DNA of 64,000 nucleotides. Origin: an uncultured Gemmatimonadales bacterium (GTDB taxonomy: Bacteria > Gemmatimonadota > Gemmatimonadetes > Longimicrobiales > RSA9). Of this stretch, positions 33,001 to 39,000 are shown piece by piece (within the stretch, counting starts at the first letter, position 1; each line of letters starts with the position of its first letter). Position numbers: made by a program. The stretch lies in the NCBI GenBank assembly GCA_963798085.1, contig CAWCRS010000002.1, positions 256,001-320,000 of the forward strand, given 5' to 3'.

Positions 33001-36000
33001 CGCGCCAGAGGCAGATCGTTGTTGCGCACGGCCATGCCCAGCACGTAGCGCGCGCCTTTGCCATAGCCGCCCATGTCGATCATCGACCACTCGGGATCCT
33101 GCCAGTCCGCCGCGTGCCCCGCCTTGACCGAATATTCGTGAATACGCTGCATGATCCAGAGCATGTCATTACCGAAGTGCGCATTGTACAGCACCTGGAT
33201 GTCGTACGGGTTGGCGCCGCGTTCGAGCAGCAGCTCGGCCAGCGCGTGCGCGTGCGGATGCGGCGGCGCGTTCTCCTCGCCGGCGCCGAGCACGCCCGTG
33301 AGCGCGGTGTAGCGCGGCCCGAGCGACGACTCATCCACGATGAAGTGCGCATTGGCATCGGCGCCGTGGTCCAGCAGCAGCTGCGCGATGCGCAGCGCGT
33401 GCTCGCTCGCGGACGGCTGCGGCAGCCGTGCATAACACAGGAACATCAGCGGCTCCCATGGCTTGGGGCCGATGCGCGGGCCTCCCGATACGATGGTGGC
33501 GACGCGCTCCGTCGCGGCTTCGGGCCGCTGCGCCACGATGCGTTCGACGTCCGCAAGATCGCCGCATACGACGGCCGTATGGATGCTGTCGTGCGTGATG
33601 GCCGGGTCCTGCTGCAGCAGGCGGGCGGCCGCGTTCATGCGCCGGCTGCGCGCGGCGCCCCCGTTCACAATGACGGCGCAGGCATCTTCGAGGAACCACG
33701 CGACACGCAGCGCGTGCGCATCGTCGCCTGCAAACGTACCGGCTTGCCGGTCTTCGAGGCGATCGCGCAGCGCGGACCAGCCGGGCAGCCCGTACTCGCG
33801 GGCGAGGGCGTGCTGGACATCGCGCAGGCCGGGGGACGCCGGAGCCGCGGGCCACGCCGCGCGCAGCCGGACTCCCGCCTGTTCGTCGCCCGTGCGCAGC
33901 GCCTTGAGCCAGCGCTTCGCTTCTTTCCTGAGGTTGTCGAGGGTGCTCGCGTCGGTGAGCCGGCGGCGCATGGATACCTTCCTTCCGTGATCGCCTGGTG
34001 TCCGCTTGCGTTCAGGCCGGAAGAAGGTCTGTGATGTCACGGCGAACGTCGTCGGGTGGGAGTCCTCTCCCTTGCCGCGGACTGGAGGCGCCCCGTGGCG
34101 CACTGGCGGGCAATGTTGCGTGACCTCCGGCGACTGTCAACCAACGCAGGCGCACGCGGGCCGCGACCCCGTGCCCGGGCGGCCGGCGGAACCCGGCGGA
34201 GCGCCAGCGCAGGCAGTCCGACGGCGGCATGAGACGGTTTCGTCGCCTGCTACATACAATCGGGAAACACATCCAGCCTTTCCATCCCGGCCGCGGAAAC
34301 TCATGGTCCGCCGAGTGGTATCAGCGGTCCGCGTCGGCTTTTTTCTTGCATGGGCCGGCGGCAAGCGGCGGCAGACCCGCCCGTTGCGATTCCACCCCCG
34401 CGATCCGGCGATGATGCGGCCACCGATCCGGTGGGTTATCCTTACCTTAGCCACCAACTCATTGAGAGGAGACACCCATGCGTCGTGTACTCGGTTCCGC
34501 GGTTGCACTTACCGCCGTCCTGCTGCTTCCACGAATGGTCGCTGCCCAGGGCGGGATGGATCAGGCCAAGAAGGTCGCGGGCGGCGGCATCTCCGTGGCC
34601 GGCTGGATGGGGATGGTCGATCCGACGGAGACCGGAATGGATGTGAGCGGCGCGAAGTTCGCCAAGGAAGGCGCCGGGTTCCACGTCACGACCGGTCCCG
34701 CAATCACGTACTGGAATCCCGCGAACAAGGCCGCCGGCGACTATACCGTGAAGGCCACGTTCAACGAGCCCAAGTACATGAACCTCAACACTCACCCGCA
34801 CCCGTACGGGATCGTGATCGGCGGGAACGACATGGGCACGCCCAACGCCACGTACCTGTACTGCGCGGCCTACGGCAACGGCAAGTTCATCATGCGCGGC
34901 TTCGGCCCCGCGGCGTTCGCGCTGAACGGCCGCATGGGCGAAGCGAATGATGCGGTGCACAAGGCGGCGGGGCCGGGCGAATCGGTCACGCAGGAAATTG
35001 CCGTGTCGGTCAAGGGCGACAAGGTGGAGTGTTCGGTCAACGGCACGGTCGTCGGCAGCTACGCCAAGTCCGATGTCGTGGGTGCCGGCAAGCTGAAGAG
35101 CACGGATGGCGTGTACGGCATCCGCTTCGCACACAACACGGAAGGCACGGTCTCCGGCTTCACGATGACGAAGAACTGACAGCGCATTAGCAGCGCTGCT
35201 CCGGCAGCTCGAACCCCGGCGTCATGCGGCATGGTCCGTATGGCGCCGGGGTTTCCGTATTCCGTCAGTGCGTATGCGCGCGGATCGTCAGCGCTGTGGC
35301 GGCGGCACCGTGACGGCCCAGAGTCCCTGATCGAGCTGCAGGATGTCCTGCGCATCGGCCGCGGTGAAATAGCCGAAGCCGCCGTCGCCCCAGGTCACGC
35401 CCCAGTTGTTGGCGAACTTGAAGCGTGACGTGGCCGGATCGTAGCCGACAATGGTGATCACCGTGCTGCCCAGCGTGGCCTGGTTCGCGCCGGCGGGCTT
35501 TACGAGCCCGGTACGGGTGGCGTCGTCGGTGCTCCACGCTTCGGTCGCAGTGGCCACGGCGAGCACCGGCGTCTTCCTGTCGAGTGTCGCAAGGATCGCG
35601 TCGAGGCCGGGGATCTGCGTCATGGTGGCCTTGTAGTCCGCGGCGGCGTTGTCGAGATCTCGCCAGGTGACGCCGGCGGGCAGACTGCGATTCAGTGCCC
35701 GGTACGGCCAAATCGATTCGGGCGGCGCGCCGAACTGCCGCGCGACGTAGATCGTGGTCTCGAGAAACGTGCCCTCGCCCGTGACTTCGTCGTGGCGCTT
35801 CGCCTTCTCGTAGATGTAGCGCATGGAGAGGCGCAGCGGGCGGCCCTGTGCCGAGAGCGAGGCATCCATCGCCGTGGCACACGCGGCCGCGGCCACCGTG
35901 CCTTCCTGACCGACATCCCTGACTTCGGCCCAGGGTGCGAGGTCGACCGCTCTGGGCGCTGCAACGATCAGCGAAACCGCACTGCCTCTGCGAATCGATG

Positions 36001-39000
36001 TCTGCGACGCAGGCTTCTGCTCGAGTACCCAACCCGGTGCTTGCTCGTTGGTCGCCTGTTGCGTGACGTCGCCCACAGCCAGGCCGACGCCGGCAAGGTC
36101 ACGCGTGGCGCGCTCGAGCGTCAGCCCGCTCACATTCGGCACGTTCACGCGCTGACTGCCTGCCCACGTGTAGACGGAGTAACCGCCGGCCGCCAGCGCG
36201 AGCGCCAGAACGACCGCAGCGGATCGCCAGTGGCTGCGCAGCCGTTCCGAGAGCGAGCCGCGCGCTCTGCGCCGCTTGATGTCCCGGCAGAGCCGGCCCA
36301 CATCGTCGTTCCATGAGCCGTCGCGCACTTCCGCCTGCTGCCGCTCGGCGAGAGCGCGGATGTCCTCGGGCAGATCCGCGGCGCCCGGCAATGCCGCACC
36401 GCCGACGAGGACGGGAATGACGAGAAGGCCGTTGGCGAGCGCGGCATGGATCTCGCCGCGCACCCAGTCATCCGCGTTGTCCAGACGACGCTGGCCCGCC
36501 GCATCCGTGAGTGTGGTCCAGTGCCTGCCGATCACGGCCAGCAGCACATCCGCCTGTCGCAGCTGCTGATTCAGCGTATCCGCGTAGTCGTCACCGCGCT
36601 GGATGTCGTCGACATCCATGAACACGGTGTCGGCGCCGAATACGCGGGAGAGATGATCGTAGAGACGGCCGGCGTGACCGGCCGAATCGTCGCGGCGGTA
36701 GCTGATGAAGATTCCGCTCACACTCGATCCGCGCGGTATCACCGTCTGCGGTGGCGGGCCTGCCGTTCGACACGCGACGCGTGGCTCGAAACAGCGGCAG
36801 ACGTTCGTGCGAGGATGGGCTGGCGGCCGGGCTGCGTCAAGATCCGAATCCCGCGGAGCCGTGCCTTCGGATCAGAGCTGGCTCGACGCATACCCGCTGG
36901 CTGGTGTGCGACGCGCGTCGTGGGCCGGTGGGCCGGCCTGCGGGCGCTTTGCCGCCGGTTGCCGCTTCGTCCGTTCGCCGGGAGCCTGCGCCCACGACGG
37001 CACGGGTGGACTGCATTATTTCCCGGCTAACAGCTCGCGAGCCTGACTCAGCGACTGGCCCTGGCTGTAGATGTCTGCCCACACATTGCCGGTGTCCGCA
37101 ATGCGCCGCTCCAGGTTGCGCAGCGTGAACGTCTGCGGCGCGACTTCGCCGCTCTCCAGCTCCTCCCACGTGCACGGCGCAGAAATCGGTGCGCCGGGCT
37201 TCGCGCGTACCGTGTACGTGGCGGCGAACGTGGCGCTGTAATCGTTGCGGCCGGTGTCGACGAGGATGCGTCCGCCACGGTCCGCCTTGCTGAACTCCTG
37301 CGTCAGGTGCACGGGATCGCGCTGCACCATGGCGCGCCCCACCGTGTGTGCGAAACTCGAGACTTCGCCGGTGTGCGCGCTGCCATCGAGCGGAATCGCG
37401 ATGTGGTAGCCCTTCGAGCCCGACGTCTTAACCCAGCTGCGCAGGCCCAGCTCGGCGAGGAAGTCACGCAGGCCGAGCGCGGCGGCGCGCAGCACGGCGG
37501 GCTCGTCAACGAGCGGGTCGAGATCGAACACACAGATGTCGGGGTGCACGAGATCAGGTGCGCGTGACACCCACACGTGTGCTGTGATGCAGTTCTGGTT
37601 GGCGATCCAGAGCAGGCCGCGCGTGTCCGTAATGAGCGGATAGTGCACGATGCCGCGGTTGTGGTGCACTTCCACCCGCTCCAGCCATTCGGGGAAGCCC
37701 TTCTTCACATCCTTCTGGAAGAAGCCTTTCTCACCCATGCCGCGGTGGTAGCGCTCCATGGTCAGCGGCCGTGCGCGGATGTGCGGCAGCATGAGCGGCG
37801 CGATCATTTCGTAATACGCTGCCAGCTCGCCCTTGGTGATGCCGTCCTCGGGGAACATCACCTTGTCCGGGTGCGTGATCACGGAGTCTGTCTGAACCGT
37901 GTTGCTGCGGCTGGCCTCAACGGAAGGTCAGCCGCGAGAGGGTTTCTGCGCGAAGACCGGACCGCGTCTGGAAGTCCTGAATGCTGGCGAAGGCCTGCGC
38001 GTCACGGGCGCGCATCCAGCCAGTCACCTCGGCTTCGCTGATGCCCGGGACGAGGCGCATCACGCCTTCCTCTGCCGTGTTCAGGTCGAAGGAGAGCGGT
38101 TGCGCGTCACCGAACGCGACCAGCGTGACCGTAACGCCCGGCACTTCGACGCGAATCTGCGGACCGAGATTCTGGTAGAGCACACGCGGATCTCGTGCGA
38201 TCTCCGTCCGCCAGCGCGCACGCGCCGCTTCGATCGCCGTATTGCTTCGCTCGGTGAGATCGAGCCGCAGCGCTCCGAGGTAGTGGTCGCGCCACAGGGT
38301 GCGAGCCTGGCGATCGACGAACACGCCGCGACTCAGATCGCAGAGAAGATCGATGACCTCGTTCGATTCTGCCGGAAAGCGGCGAAGCCAGGCCTCGATG
38401 AACAGCAGCAGGAACGGGTCATCCGGCTTTCGTCTGCCGGGGCCGAGGATGTCGGACAGGGCAGTCAACACCCTCTGTTGCCGGTCGCGAATGATCTGCG
38501 GGGTCGGTGGATCCTGCCCGCGCACCAGCAGGCTGAAGAAGAAGCTGGCGTAGAAACCCTCGGATTGCAGCAGCTGATTGGCGTCGCGCAGGCTGGCGAA
38601 GTCGCGGCTCTTTTCCAGCTGCACGCGCAGATAGTCCGGCCCCTTCCAGGCAGGTGAAAACGCGAAATTGTTCTCGCGCACTTCGTAGTAGCGTGCTACT
38701 GTCTGTGAGAAGCTCAGCAGGTCGCCTGCCGGTCTGTGGAATTCGCCGAGCACGTCCGGAACGCCGAACAGGAACTTCTGATGATGGTACCGCTCCCGGA
38801 GGAACGGATCGGTGGCCAGATGCGCCTCGAGCGTTTCCAGATGAATCGCAAAGCCTTCGTCGAATGCAGTGCCGCGGTCCGTCAGCGCGGCCGTGGTGTG
38901 TGAAATAGCGGCGATCTCCGTCCTTGGAATGCCCTCACCGCCATTCAGCAGCGAGAGCACCACGTGACCGGTTTCGTGAAGGAATGTGGTAGTGAACGCC

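Follow-up and report, generated by a model that had tools for sequence, protein, structure and literature searches.

Introduction

PASTA Ser/Thr kinases (PknB, Stk1, PrkC, IreK) follow a type-II order, with an inner N-terminal catalytic domain, a basic stretch, one helix and an outer PASTA region, and have been proposed to work by binding wall fragments, clustering and thereby activating the inner domain. The NAD+-cleaving TIR proteins (SARM1, Thoeris ThsB, AbTir, TIR-STING effectors) have in common a fold, the FISYRR and W/F-x-x-x-E motifs and a conserved catalytic Glu, and activation by self-association is established both for the SARM1-type and for the bacterial members. In animals, the Toll-like and IL-1 receptors, which are type I proteins with LRR or Ig ectodomains and a C-terminal, non-enzymatic TIR, and Drosophila PGRP-LC, a type II protein with an outer Amidase_2/PGRP domain, are likewise single-pass and link pattern binding by an outer domain to signalling by an inner one.

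Related layouts have been described in bacteria. Receptor-like TIR-ParA and PCTM systems, in the passages of a 2026 preprint that treat them, have type-II, single-TM proteins whose cytoplasmic N-terminal domain is constant and whose outer sensor varies (PASTA, SH3 or other peptidoglycan binders), and are predicted to intercept peptidoglycan breaching (bioRxiv 10.64898/2026.10.19.760177). The iSTAND ternary systems, in the portions of Kaur et al. that concern them, contain TIR effectors and TM-preceded peptidoglycan-associating domains (PEGA, OmpA, PASTA, Sel1), with PASTA sitting on the vWA component and not on the TIR (Kaur et al. 2020, eLife, PMC7159879). Here we describe a protein in which a TIR domain appears to be fused directly to a transmembrane helix and an outer PASTA and papain-like sensor.

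Architecture of the protein

We analysed a window of 64,000 nucleotides from the genome of a soil bacterium, which is the whole stretch of DNA under study. The longest open frame at the locus runs from a GTG at 36742 (35288..36742, minus strand, 484 aa). The 477-aa form that begins at GTG 36721 agrees with the consensus N-terminus of its homologues, MSGVFISYRR, and the gene placed at 35288..36721 by a preliminary description is thus a real ORF with a well-fitting start. We identified the following features.

35288..36721, minus strand: whole coding sequence, 477 codons plus a stop at 35288-35290, GTG start at 36721 (ORF list and translation)
36290..36712, minus strand: TIR domain, residues 4-144, SARM1-like, predicted cytoplasmic (Pfam TIR_2 4.6e-14; genome scan C2:292290-292712)
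36452..36454, minus strand: codon of Glu90, predicted catalytic glutamate, in the motif D-W-V-R-x-E (aligned to the Glu of the SARM1 stretch DWVHKE)
36230..36277, minus strand: basic juxtamembrane stretch, residues 149-164, KRRRARGSLSERLRSH (positive-inside signal, from sequence)
36158..36229, minus strand: single TM helix, predicted signal anchor, residues about 165-188 (hydropathy, AF2 model, homologue conservation)
35960..36148, minus strand: PASTA domain, residues 192-254, predicted periplasmic (Pfam PASTA 4.9e-10; genome scan C2:291960-292148)
35291..35953, minus strand: papain-fold domain (C1, xylellain-like), residues 257-477, without nucleophile, predicted periplasmic (Pfam Peptidase_C1 3.8e-5; phmmer against 3ois 8.4e-10)

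The 477-aa protein therefore has four parts, namely TIR_2, a basic stretch with one hydrophobic helix, PASTA and a papain-fold domain, and its AF2 model has a mean pLDDT of 89.5. All three Pfam matches exceed their gathering scores: TIR_2 over residues 4-144 (53.4 bits, cut-off 28), PASTA over residues 192-254 (39.7 bits, cut-off 23.2) and Peptidase_C1 over residues 265-452 (24.3 bits, cut-off 20.7).

The TIR domain matches SARM1 TIR structures (phmmer, 4e-6), with FISYRR and DWV..E common to both in the alignment, and the SARM1 residue aligned with E90 is one that we take to be the catalytic E642. This glutamate is retained in 69/70 close homologues and in all 71 members of the wider subfamily with a TIR and a TM helix. 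Because E90 and the SARM1-like motifs are conserved, the TIR looks catalytically competent, as a predicted NAD-cleaving enzyme, and by analogy with the known NAD+-cleaving TIRs it is likely to be activated by self-association. It differs from them in its predicted membrane anchor and periplasmic sensor. The NCBIfam model ThcB4 matches at 47 bits, well short of its cut-off of 220, and we found no ThsA-like partner (SIR2, SLOG or Macro) among the neighbours of the gene.

There is no signal peptide ahead of the N-terminal TIR, and a cluster of Arg and Lys follows the domain, conserved as RRRRARG among close homologues. The 15 residues that lead into the helix contain five Arg and the 15 behind it one; across the TIR+TM subfamily the mean number of K+R is 3.86 before the helix against 1.45 after, with a positive-inside bias in 62/71 members. 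The highest 19-residue Kyte-Doolittle window behind the TIR reaches a weak 1.53 (residues 167-185). The AF2 model has a helix at residues 165-188, its least confident region (pLDDT 61-78). The helix keeps its position across 70 homologues, and the hydropathy of distant homologues is 2.0-2.7. We counted towards topology that the subfamily tails beyond the helix hold domains typical of, or exclusive to, the extracytoplasmic space. These data point to a type II single-pass inner-membrane protein, with the TIR inside and the C-terminal sensor outside. Since the genome encodes the outer-membrane machinery of a diderm (9 Omp85 matches), we expect the C-terminal half in the periplasm. The plan proposed earlier for this protein, a cytoplasmic TIR, one TM helix and an outer PASTA with a dead papain domain, thus agrees with Pfam, hydropathy, the AF2 helix and the positive-inside bias.

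The outer half resembles known families in part. NCBIfam PknB_PASTA_kin matches partially, at residues 156-256, and the TM+PASTA segment partly matches the PASTA-kinase models PD-T4-6 (7e-11) and NF033483 (3.8e-11), the latter with a score of 42.7, far under the family cut-off of 450. Papain-family structures are the top Foldseek matches, with 3ois at E 2.3e-16 and a TM-score of 0.71 on the target. The C-terminal domain thus has the fold of xylellain and other C1 peptidases and keeps their Asn-x-Trp-Gly motif (N438 in 55/70 homologues, W440 in 68/70), but differs from them at the active site. V276, T420 and N438 occupy the positions of papain Cys25, His159 and Asn175, and the nucleophile Cys is present in 0/70 homologues and the His in 11/70 (missing in 59/70), bearing out the earlier reading of a dead papain; the oxyanion Gln is missing in 66/70. 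Given these losses, the domain reads as a pseudo-protease, presumably a binding module. Its identity, 63% within the close clade and 41-46% to distant groups, is comparable to that of the TIR, a clear sign of purifying selection as judged from the sequences. Because it is well conserved and not hypervariable, its ligand is probably a conserved, self-derived component of the envelope, which we favour over a phage protein that evolves fast and is recognised directly.

A candidate outside-in sensor

We tentatively favour, at a little under even chances, a one-gene, type-II sensor that works from the outside in, in which peptidoglycan-derived ligands in the periplasm would cluster the receptor and lead to cleavage of NAD+ in the cytoplasm. 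The proposed ligands of PASTA and of the inactive protease's peptide-binding cleft derive from peptidoglycan, with muropeptides, free stem peptides and lipid II as candidates; they would appear or build up upon a breach or remodelling of the wall, for instance through phage lysins or injection, predators, lytic enzymes or the lysis of neighbouring kin. Binding would then cluster the receptor in the membrane, in the way that has been suggested for the PASTA kinases, and bring the TIR domains together, the condition in which TIR NADases turn active. The resulting cleavage of NAD+ could arrest or kill the damaged or infected cell, or could release an ADP-ribose-derived signal. There are bacterial TIRs that do not drain NAD+ but produce a signal for an effector of its own; we see none at this locus, though one may be encoded elsewhere. 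As sensor and effector would be one polypeptide, a partner gene would not be required. Among the features that count against the sensor reading are the helix of this protein, which is only weakly hydrophobic (1.53), and the conservation of the aligned ectodomains, which do not show the diversity usual where pathogens are recognised directly.

Distribution across the TIR subfamily

The TIR belongs to a subfamily of 5,424 cluster representatives (E<=1e-30), and a TM helix lies directly behind the TIR in 70 of the best 94 single-TIR representatives. Among 76 TM-bearing members, the tails contain PASTA (9/76), SH3_3, Amidase_2, TonB_C, SBP_bac_5, PD40, PDZ and Lcl_C domains, while in 49/76 no outer domain can be recognised; LprI was also found as a tail domain in the subfamily. 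Tails exceed 100 residues in 56/71 members and are at most 30 residues in 5/71. The subfamily thus appears from its sequences to be modular, with outer domains that are largely linked to peptidoglycan or the envelope. Given the many members without a recognisable outer domain and the five with hardly any, ectodomain sensing is not universal across the clade, and the latter suggest that membrane tethering may matter by itself.

These members bear on an unlikely alternative, that the protein is a membrane-tethered effector whose ectodomain mainly anchors or localises it (with peptidoglycan or the septum as possible sites), with the trigger coming from inside the cell, from membrane perturbation or from a sensor encoded elsewhere, of TPR-S or STAND type. 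TPR-S genes do adjoin subfamily members in two loci (L024, L031), and in one genome (G000) about 3 kb separate such a gene from another TIR-TM gene; an iSTAND-MoxR-vWA operon (L030) also employs the same TIR clade, there as the effector module TIR-EAD9. Against this, the four full-length homologue loci have no conserved partner or other neighbour in common, the gene standing alone; most tails are long; the ligand-binding folds found in them (SBP_bac_5, Amidase_2, PDZ) exceed the needs of an anchor; and the dead papain domain is clearly under purifying selection.

Genomic context

The genes near 35288..36721 encode a LigD primase-polymerase, a multicopper oxidase and a cytochrome c. We found no MoxR, vWA or iSTAND genes adjoining it and no defence island around it within the window, the PADLOC matches on its neighbours reflecting generic ABC-ATPase or ankyrin similarity. 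Such ordinary surroundings, the matches to PASTA-kinase models and a conserved ectodomain suggestive of a conserved self ligand are in keeping with a role in housekeeping: a PknB/Stk1-like protein that regulates growth, division or dormancy with a TIR in place of the kinase, reporting normal wall turnover by a nucleotide signal or protein contacts, with no part in defence. We consider this somewhat less probable again than a tethered effector. A search of 40 relatives from the same genus, family and order recovered the ectodomain in none, and the TIR subfamily occurs in only 4/41 genomes, with 1-5 copies each (five in this genome), where vertical conservation would be expected of such a regulator; domains are also shuffled freely in the family. 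A role in conflict or immunity fits better, because the distribution is patchy and expanded and the same TIR clade recurs in the iSTAND conflict operon.

The genome contains further TIR proteins, with 17 TIR_2 matches in our scan where 16 had been counted before. The preliminary description held that seven or eight share one plan; we recovered seven with a TIR, one or more hydrophobic segments and a C-terminal domain at the expected places, but only five belong to one TIR subfamily (40-48% identity to the TIR at 35288..36721), the FGE-sulfatase protein (24%) and a WD40 protein (29%) having other types of TIR. The last, at C5:703080-705863, is probably g02598, which was thought to lack Pfam domains and in fact has WD40/PD40 propeller matches (WD40 1.8e-24), and g05131 on C9 has three hydrophobic stretches behind its TIR instead of a single helix. 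The placement of CHASE2 ahead of the TIR in g02624 is confirmed, as is the split of g00480/g00481, where the TIR+TM frame ends right past the helix and two PASTA domains lie in another frame. STAND-type TIR proteins with NB-ARC, TPR and WD40 domains are also present. These many potential partners, and the established ability of TIR domains to assemble among themselves, would suit a homotypic adaptor that recruits other TIR proteins without NAD+ cleavage, as in animal TLR signalling, but we regard this as improbable, since the catalytic Glu and its nearby motif are invariant across the subfamily, inactive adaptor TIRs are typically without this residue, and the nearest solved relative is the enzyme SARM1.

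Relation to described receptors

Our preferred reading, an outside-in sensor, combines features of several described systems. Compared with the PASTA kinases, the protein has a TIR instead of a kinase, a single PASTA followed by a dead papain fold, and a diderm host. The TIR-ParA receptors are similar in layout, but, in the sections of the preprint concerned, it is ParA that their membrane protein bears, the active TIR being encoded by its own gene upstream; here helix and sensor are joined directly to the TIR, and ParA is absent. A direct TIR-TM-sensor fusion is not among the variants in section 25 of that preprint (bioRxiv 10.64898/2026.10.19.760177), and its ParA-TM-PASTA receptors, in the parts cited, are the closest match to a TIR-TM-PASTA fusion in the literature searched, in which we found no description of such a fusion. 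The earlier comparison with Toll-like receptors holds only by analogy, for the arrangement of an outer sensor and an inner TIR; the orientation is type II, with the TIR N-terminal, the reverse of that in TLRs. The likeness to animal receptors is homology for the TIR fold only and analogy for the layout, and a subfamily member with the order TIR-TM-Amidase_2 (P0220) has a layout like that of PGRP-LC. The subfamily apparently represents a large and so far undescribed group of receptor-like bacterial TIR proteins.

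Gene model and domain order

The studied gene (g00687) lies on the minus strand, where the list of open reading frames gives a 484-aa GTG frame (35288..36742). A 477-aa version starting at GTG 36721 has the N-terminus VSGIFISYRR, its first residue being read as M, and the consensus start of 43 aligned homologues, MSGVFISYRR, agrees with this shorter form, which the preliminary description had also adopted. We identified three Pfam matches in the 477-aa protein, all of which exceed their curated gathering cut-offs.

Pfam matches of the 477-aa protein (window 35288-36721, minus strand)
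Residues 4-144: TIR_2 (PF13676), E 4.6e-14, 53.4 bits, cut-off 28
Residues 192-254: PASTA, E 4.9e-10, 39.7 bits, cut-off 23.2
Residues 265-452: Peptidase_C1, E 3.8e-5, 24.3 bits, cut-off 20.7

These matches, a modelled helix at residues 165-188 and the lack of a catalytic cysteine in any of 70 homologues bear out the build first proposed for this gene, of a TIR domain, a helix, a PASTA domain and a dead papain-like domain. Among sequencing runs, no RNA run was listed for the gene, and one soil-metagenome DNA run contains 0.44 of the sampled words. A promoter and terminator scan of 35100-37100, uninformative at 66-69% GC, returned no promoter-like sites and one terminator-like site (35156-35139, minus strand), located past the stop codon and within the convergent neighbour.

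Membrane helix and topology

The stretch between the TIR and PASTA domains reads KRRRARGSLSERLRSHWRS-AAVVLALALAAGGYSVYTW-AGSQR, and its best 19-residue Kyte-Doolittle window scores 1.53, below that of a strand inside the TIR domain (2.04). An AlphaFold2 model built on a 43-row alignment (mean pLDDT 89.5, pTM 0.59) places a helix here, at residues 165-188, with a local pLDDT of 61-78. The hydrophobic stretch is constant in position across 70 homologues and drifts in sequence, distant members scoring 2.0-2.7. Five arginines occur in the 15 residues preceding the helix of the studied protein versus one in the 15 following, and the same bias is found in 71 members of its TIR subfamily, where lysines plus arginines average 3.86 ahead of the helix and 1.45 behind it (the count ahead is higher in 62 of the 71, equal in four and lower in five).

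A signal peptide is absent, as the TIR domain starts at residue 4. The source genome encodes nine Omp85-family matches, indicating that the organism is diderm and that the outside is therefore the periplasm; PASTA, like most of the tail domains described below, is known from extracytoplasmic proteins. Four indirect lines agree, from which we infer a cytoplasmic N-terminal TIR domain and a periplasmic C-terminal half. The opposite topology, with the TIR domain outside, was rejected on account of the absent N-terminal signal peptide, the positive-inside bias and the extracytoplasmic nature of PASTA.

Chemistry of the TIR domain

In a phmmer search of all PDB sequences, residues 3-124 aligned to the SARM1 TIR domain at ~4e-6. 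FISYRR is common to both proteins, and D-W-V-R-G-E90 of the query sits on D-W-V-H-K-E of SARM1, the glutamate of which is the catalytic E642. A glutamate in the context W/F-x-x-x-E is a mark of NAD+-cleaving TIR domains. Among 70 homologues, 69 have this residue and one has a gap, and it occurs in all 71 proteins of the wider subfamily that combine an N-terminal TIR domain with a transmembrane helix. Because of the SARM1 alignment and the retention of E90, the TIR domain looks enzymatic, and we consider it a predicted NADase.

A conserved pseudo-papain domain

The fold of the C-terminal domain is that of C1 peptidases. Besides the Peptidase_C1 match, a phmmer search paired it with xylellain, a Xylella cysteine protease (3ois, 8.4e-10), which was also the top Foldseek match of the model (E 2.3e-16, TM-score on target 0.71), with cathepsins and mite allergens next. 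Catalytic positions were assigned through the 3ois alignment and papain numbering, by which V276, T420, N438 and V270 are equivalent to Cys25, His159, Asn175 and Gln19 of papain. Thus, the catalytic Cys-His dyad and the glutamine of the oxyanion hole are replaced in the studied protein by V276, T420 and V270. Among 70 homologues, the Cys25 position is held by V (56), G (5), I (4), A (3), S (1) or H (1) and never by Cys; His occurs at the His159 position in 11 and Gln at the Gln19 position in four, and Asn is found at the Asn175 position in 55. Cys 281 is non-conserved, being present in only 34 of the 70. The residue counts rule out an active papain protease.

Identity of the domains among close and distant relatives
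Mean pairwise identity, close clade (n=40): TIR 74.1%, linker and TM 59.1%, PASTA 62.5%, C1-like 62.8%
Studied protein (P0001) versus distant PASTA and C1 group (n=7): TIR 48.9%, linker and TM 17.4%, PASTA 27.0%, C1-like 40.9%
Studied protein versus TIR-TM-C1 group without PASTA (n=17): TIR 43.6%, linker and TM 14.9%, PASTA not applicable, C1-like 46.1%
Six fragments or outliers (P0031, P0032, P0041, P0044, P0045 and P0049) were omitted.

As identities of the C1-like domain stay high despite the lost catalytic residues, it bears the signature expected of a binding module under purifying selection, neither decaying nor hypervariable. In self-association predictions for two copies of the ectodomain (residues 189-477), the runs scored 0.00, 0.46 and 0.00.

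TIR proteins of the source genome

A profile scan of the source genome gave 17 PF13676 matches. Seven frames, the studied gene included, follow the order TIR domain, hydrophobic segment or segments and C-terminal domain.

The other frames with a TIR domain, hydrophobic segment(s) and a C-terminal domain, by contig
C1: TIR-TM-FGE-sulfatase tail
C2: paralogue, TIR-TM-PASTA x2, with a frame change directly past the helix
C3 and C8: two Pfam-less tails
C5, 703080-705863: WD40/PD40 tail
C9: CarboxypepD_reg tail, three hydrophobic stretches

The shared plan that had been proposed for these proteins holds for the domain order but not for a common type of TIR: only five of the seven, including the studied protein, have the same TIR subfamily with its characteristic loop. 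The TIR domain of the studied protein is 40-48% identical to those of the other four, and 24% and 29% identical to the TIRs of other types in the FGE-sulfatase and WD40 proteins, respectively. Two tails also differ from their earlier description, as the C5 tail, probably one of those thought to lack Pfam families, has WD40/PD40 matches, and the C9 protein does combine a TIR domain with a CarboxypepD_reg tail but has three hydrophobic stretches instead of a single helix. For the ectodomains of the two Pfam-less paralogues, the best ESM Atlas scores of 0.90 (DUF6318; DUF4352/DUF5067-like) offer leads. The suspected split of the double-PASTA paralogue (g00480/g00481) was confirmed at C2:91750-93306 (locus L022, 1-1557), where a stop directly past the helix (L022 618) closes the TIR and TM frame and both PASTA domains lie in another frame from L022 637. 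This points to a frameshifted pseudogene or to an error of assembly.

The remaining TIR proteins of the genome include STAND types (NB-ARC, TPR, WD40), a kinase-TIR, a CHASE2-TIR and a CAP12/Pycsar-type TIR. A second TIR protein is also encoded at the start of the window.

Window 1-987, minus strand (C2:255836-256987, extending beyond the window start): 383-aa open frame with a C-terminal TIR domain (TIR_2, 85.6 bits) and ~240 N-terminal residues without a Pfam family or hydrophobic segment

Distribution of the architecture in the wider family

We identified close relatives of the full-length protein with a word-indexed search, in which 1,674 of 8,000 scored candidates matched at E<=1e-5. The 120 matches listed comprise full-length or near full-length proteins with 43-74% identity (rows P0003-P0048), a group of ~415-436 aa with TIR and Peptidase_C1 and without PASTA, and other proteins of 350-690 aa with a TIR domain and one to four PASTA domains.

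For the TIR subfamily, an exhaustive phmmer search over 1.84 billion cluster representatives, with residues 1-190 as the query, returned 34,613 matches at E<=1e-3, 27,725 at E<=1e-10 and 5,424 at E<=1e-30. Among the best 150 of the 34,613, 56 match the query in at least two stretches and are probably multi-TIR proteins, judging from these repeated matches, and 70 of the other 94 have a hydrophobic helix within 70 residues past the TIR domain. By position, the TIR is N-terminal with a TM helix in 70 of the 150 and without one in 44, internal with a TM helix in six, and internal or C-terminal without one in 30.

Of the 76 TM-bearing representatives, 49 have TIR_2 as their sole Pfam family and 27 contain another family. 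PASTA is found in nine tails (three with Peptidase_C1 and one with TonB_C) and PDZ in three, and PD40, WD40, Lcl_C, SH3_3, Amidase_2, SBP_bac_5, VWA, DUF4189, DUF4864, Sad1_UNC and Ig-like ASH/DUF1573 in one each; a further protein has a cyclase N-terminal to the TIR domain. Three tail matches are weak or sub-threshold (Glucosaminidase, DUF5067/CBM_X2, DUF2749). Past the helix, the tail exceeds 100 residues in 56 of 71 members, spans 31-100 in 10 and is 30 or shorter in five. Peptidoglycan and the periplasm are a recurring theme of the predicted tail functions, and this family-level pattern is a more interesting result than the single gene.

Individual architectures include a TIR-TM-Amidase_2 protein with a PGRP-type fold (P0220), a TIR-TM-SBP_bac_5 protein with a peptide-binding protein fold (P0184, 213.8 bits) and a TIR-TM-PASTA-TonB_C protein (P0252). 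In Thiotrichaceae MAGs, two proteins with a TIR of the same clade (L028 4054-5322 and L029 3116-4363) carry a wall-related tail, a C-terminal LprI (lysozyme inhibitor) domain.

Gene neighbourhood and distribution

A secreted-looking ORF of 233 aa converges on the studied gene, which lies 295 bp from an upstream LigD primase-polymerase gene; other neighbours encode an ankyrin protein, a Pol-beta nucleotidyltransferase (NTase) and unknowns.

Window 28227-34103 and 37016-37882, minus strand: UvrA-like double ABC ATPase, extended at the N-terminus by a long basic stretch; Pol-beta-type nucleotidyltransferase and ankyrin-repeat protein, overlapping by a few bases; stand-alone LigD primase-polymerase domain gene

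Because of this overlap, the nucleotidyltransferase and ankyrin-repeat genes are likely an operon. The TIR gene itself stands alone. Four full-length homologues were found in species-representative genomes (on three contigs of Acidobacteriota MAGs and a fourth contig binned as Hyphomicrobiaceae), and no neighbour of the studied gene recurs beside them. Likewise, a tblastn search for operon partners with nine window proteins (the TIR protein and eight neighbours) against nine related loci returned the TIR gene as the sole match. PADLOC recognised no defence island among six window neighbours, giving only generic matches (UvrA-like ABC ATPase to mad3/mad8; ankyrin), and among five neighbours from related loci it marked a patatin-type 'Effector' and a TIR/TPR-S protein in locus L024.

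The distribution is patchy. At E<=1e-10, this ectodomain was found in none of 40 relatives of the source genome, of which one shares its genus, 23 its family and 16 its order, and 35 are at least 90% complete. At E<=1e-15, the TIR subfamily was found in four of 41 genomes: the source genome has five copies, and each of the other three has one or two. Conflict genes typically show such patchy occurrence, local expansion and shuffled domains. A conflict-type role is further supported by the operon in L030 and by the TPR-S ('sensor') proteins that adjoin clade members in L024 and L031, but the window without a recognisable defence island counts against it.

In L030 (Nodosilinea sp., a cyanobacterium; 5080-8874), the clade member joins its TIR to EAD9, and iSTAND, MoxR-type AAA and vWA-CoxE genes come next; this set is an iSTAND ternary system of the kind set out in passages of Kaur et al. 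2020 (PMC7159879). TPR-S matches were also found in the source genome. One, at C5:708695-709102, is in a 1601-aa frame ~3 kb away from the TIR-TM-WD40 gene (C5:703080-705863); another, at C3:430878-431192, is ~13 kb away from the TIR-TM gene at C3:444078. There may be a recurrent TIR/TPR-S partnership. Two contigs of one Acidobacteriota MAG (L025 and L026) each encode a homologue of 473 aa (56% identity to the query). Their ORF layout agrees from ~6730 to 15715 and their upstream genes differ, reflecting either a segmental duplication or a redundant assembly.

Comparison with known systems

Known bacterial TIR systems, such as Thoeris, TIR-STING, TIR-SAVED and STAND-TIR, to our knowledge sense infection within the cell. 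A Thoeris ThsA-type effector (SIR2/SLOG, Macro-TM or similar) is not among the neighbours of the studied gene; the protein is sub-threshold for the type III Thoeris TIR (NF058526, 47 bits versus a cut-off of 220), and its PADLOC match to ThsB is limited to residues 4-62. PASTA Ser/Thr kinases (PknB/Stk1) likewise have a single TM helix followed by PASTA, here at ~165-188 and 192-254 with a predicted outward location, but possess a cytoplasmic Hanks-type kinase, whereas the studied protein has no Pkinase match and aligns with the PASTA kinase model NF033483 over residues 156-256 only (42.7 bits versus a cut-off of 450). Toll-like and IL-1 receptors are type I proteins whose cytoplasmic TIR lies at the C-terminus and whose ectodomain is of the LRR or Ig type, unlike the N-terminal TIR and the PASTA and papain-fold ectodomain found here.

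The linked MoxR AAA+, vWA and iSTAND/VMAP genes of ternary systems are absent beside the studied gene but present beside the L030 clade member; MoxR and vWA-CoxE genes also lie 2-4 kb from the L025 homologue, and are absent at the other loci. In iSTAND systems, passages of Kaur et al. 2020 (PMC7159879) place PASTA after a TM segment on vWA components. According to a section of an October 2026 preprint (10.64898/2026.10.19.760177), type-II ParA proteins with a single TM helix bear PASTA, SH3 and other sensors, are coupled to a separate upstream TIR gene and are predicted to intercept peptidoglycan breaching; the variants that this section lists do not include a TIR fused directly to a helix and sensor, and the supplements could hold such cases. 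The studied protein and its scanned neighbours have no ParA/AAA_31-type match. The diverse architectures of prokaryotic TIR groups in the relevant passages of Toshchakov and Neuwald 2020 (PMC7075850) do not include this one. Across full-text literature outside subscription journals, we found no direct TIR-TM-PASTA or receptor-like TIR fusion in bacteria, Kaur et al. 2020 and the ParA preprint being nearest: 'TIR domain' and 'PASTA domain' co-occur only in the former, and TIR, PASTA and NADase as whole words occur together in a single prokaryotic paper, the latter. On present sequence comparisons, the studied protein is a new combination of known kinds, joining a predicted TIR NADase to a PASTA-type type-II sensor.

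Proposed function and implications

The preliminary description interpreted these proteins as envelope sentinels, which is plausible and supported in part. In the reading that we tentatively favour, and place just short of an even chance, the PASTA and pseudo-papain domains would bind wall-derived ligands, ligand binding would cluster the receptor, and the clustered TIR domains would cleave NAD+, with arrest, death or a signal as the outcome. Conservation of the ectodomain suggests a conserved, self-derived 'damage' ligand, not a phage protein.

A membrane-tethered effector with some other trigger, to which the subfamily members with little or no recognisable outer domain point and the conserved ectodomain does not, seems rather unlikely. 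We give somewhat less credence to a housekeeping signal of the PknB type, to which the single helix and PASTA domain point and the patchy distribution does not. A non-enzymatic adaptor TIR is improbable given the near-invariant E90.

Returning to the favoured wall-sensing reading, a TIR NADase joined to a periplasmic wall sensor would add a new input, envelope damage or wall fragments beyond the cytoplasm, and would show that bacteria possess the plan of an outer pattern binder, one helix and an inner TIR domain as a large, diversifying family; the conserved pseudo-protease would gain a concrete role as a likely peptide-binding sensor, and one-gene constructs would be a simple system for trans-membrane clustering as a TIR enzyme switch. 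If this reading is wrong, the proteins are still an abundant, unstudied class in soil bacteria.

At 50% identity the clade comprises thousands of clusters, and roughly three in four of its best single-TIR representatives have a TM helix right past the TIR domain. It is conceivable, if on balance doubtful, that this large clade of bacterial SARM1-like TIRs represents true transmembrane pattern-recognition receptors of type II, with swappable peptidoglycan-recognition modules that read the state of the wall or periplasm and answer by cytoplasmic NAD+ cleavage; these modules may include PASTA, SH3, Amidase_2/PGRP-like, LprI, glucosaminidase-like, pseudo-papain and peptide-binding SBP or PDZ domains. 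If true, it would mean outside-in innate immune or danger signalling in bacteria by one polypeptide, a prokaryotic counterpart of the logic of TLR and PGRP-LC, acting before or without recognition of an invader in the cytoplasm.
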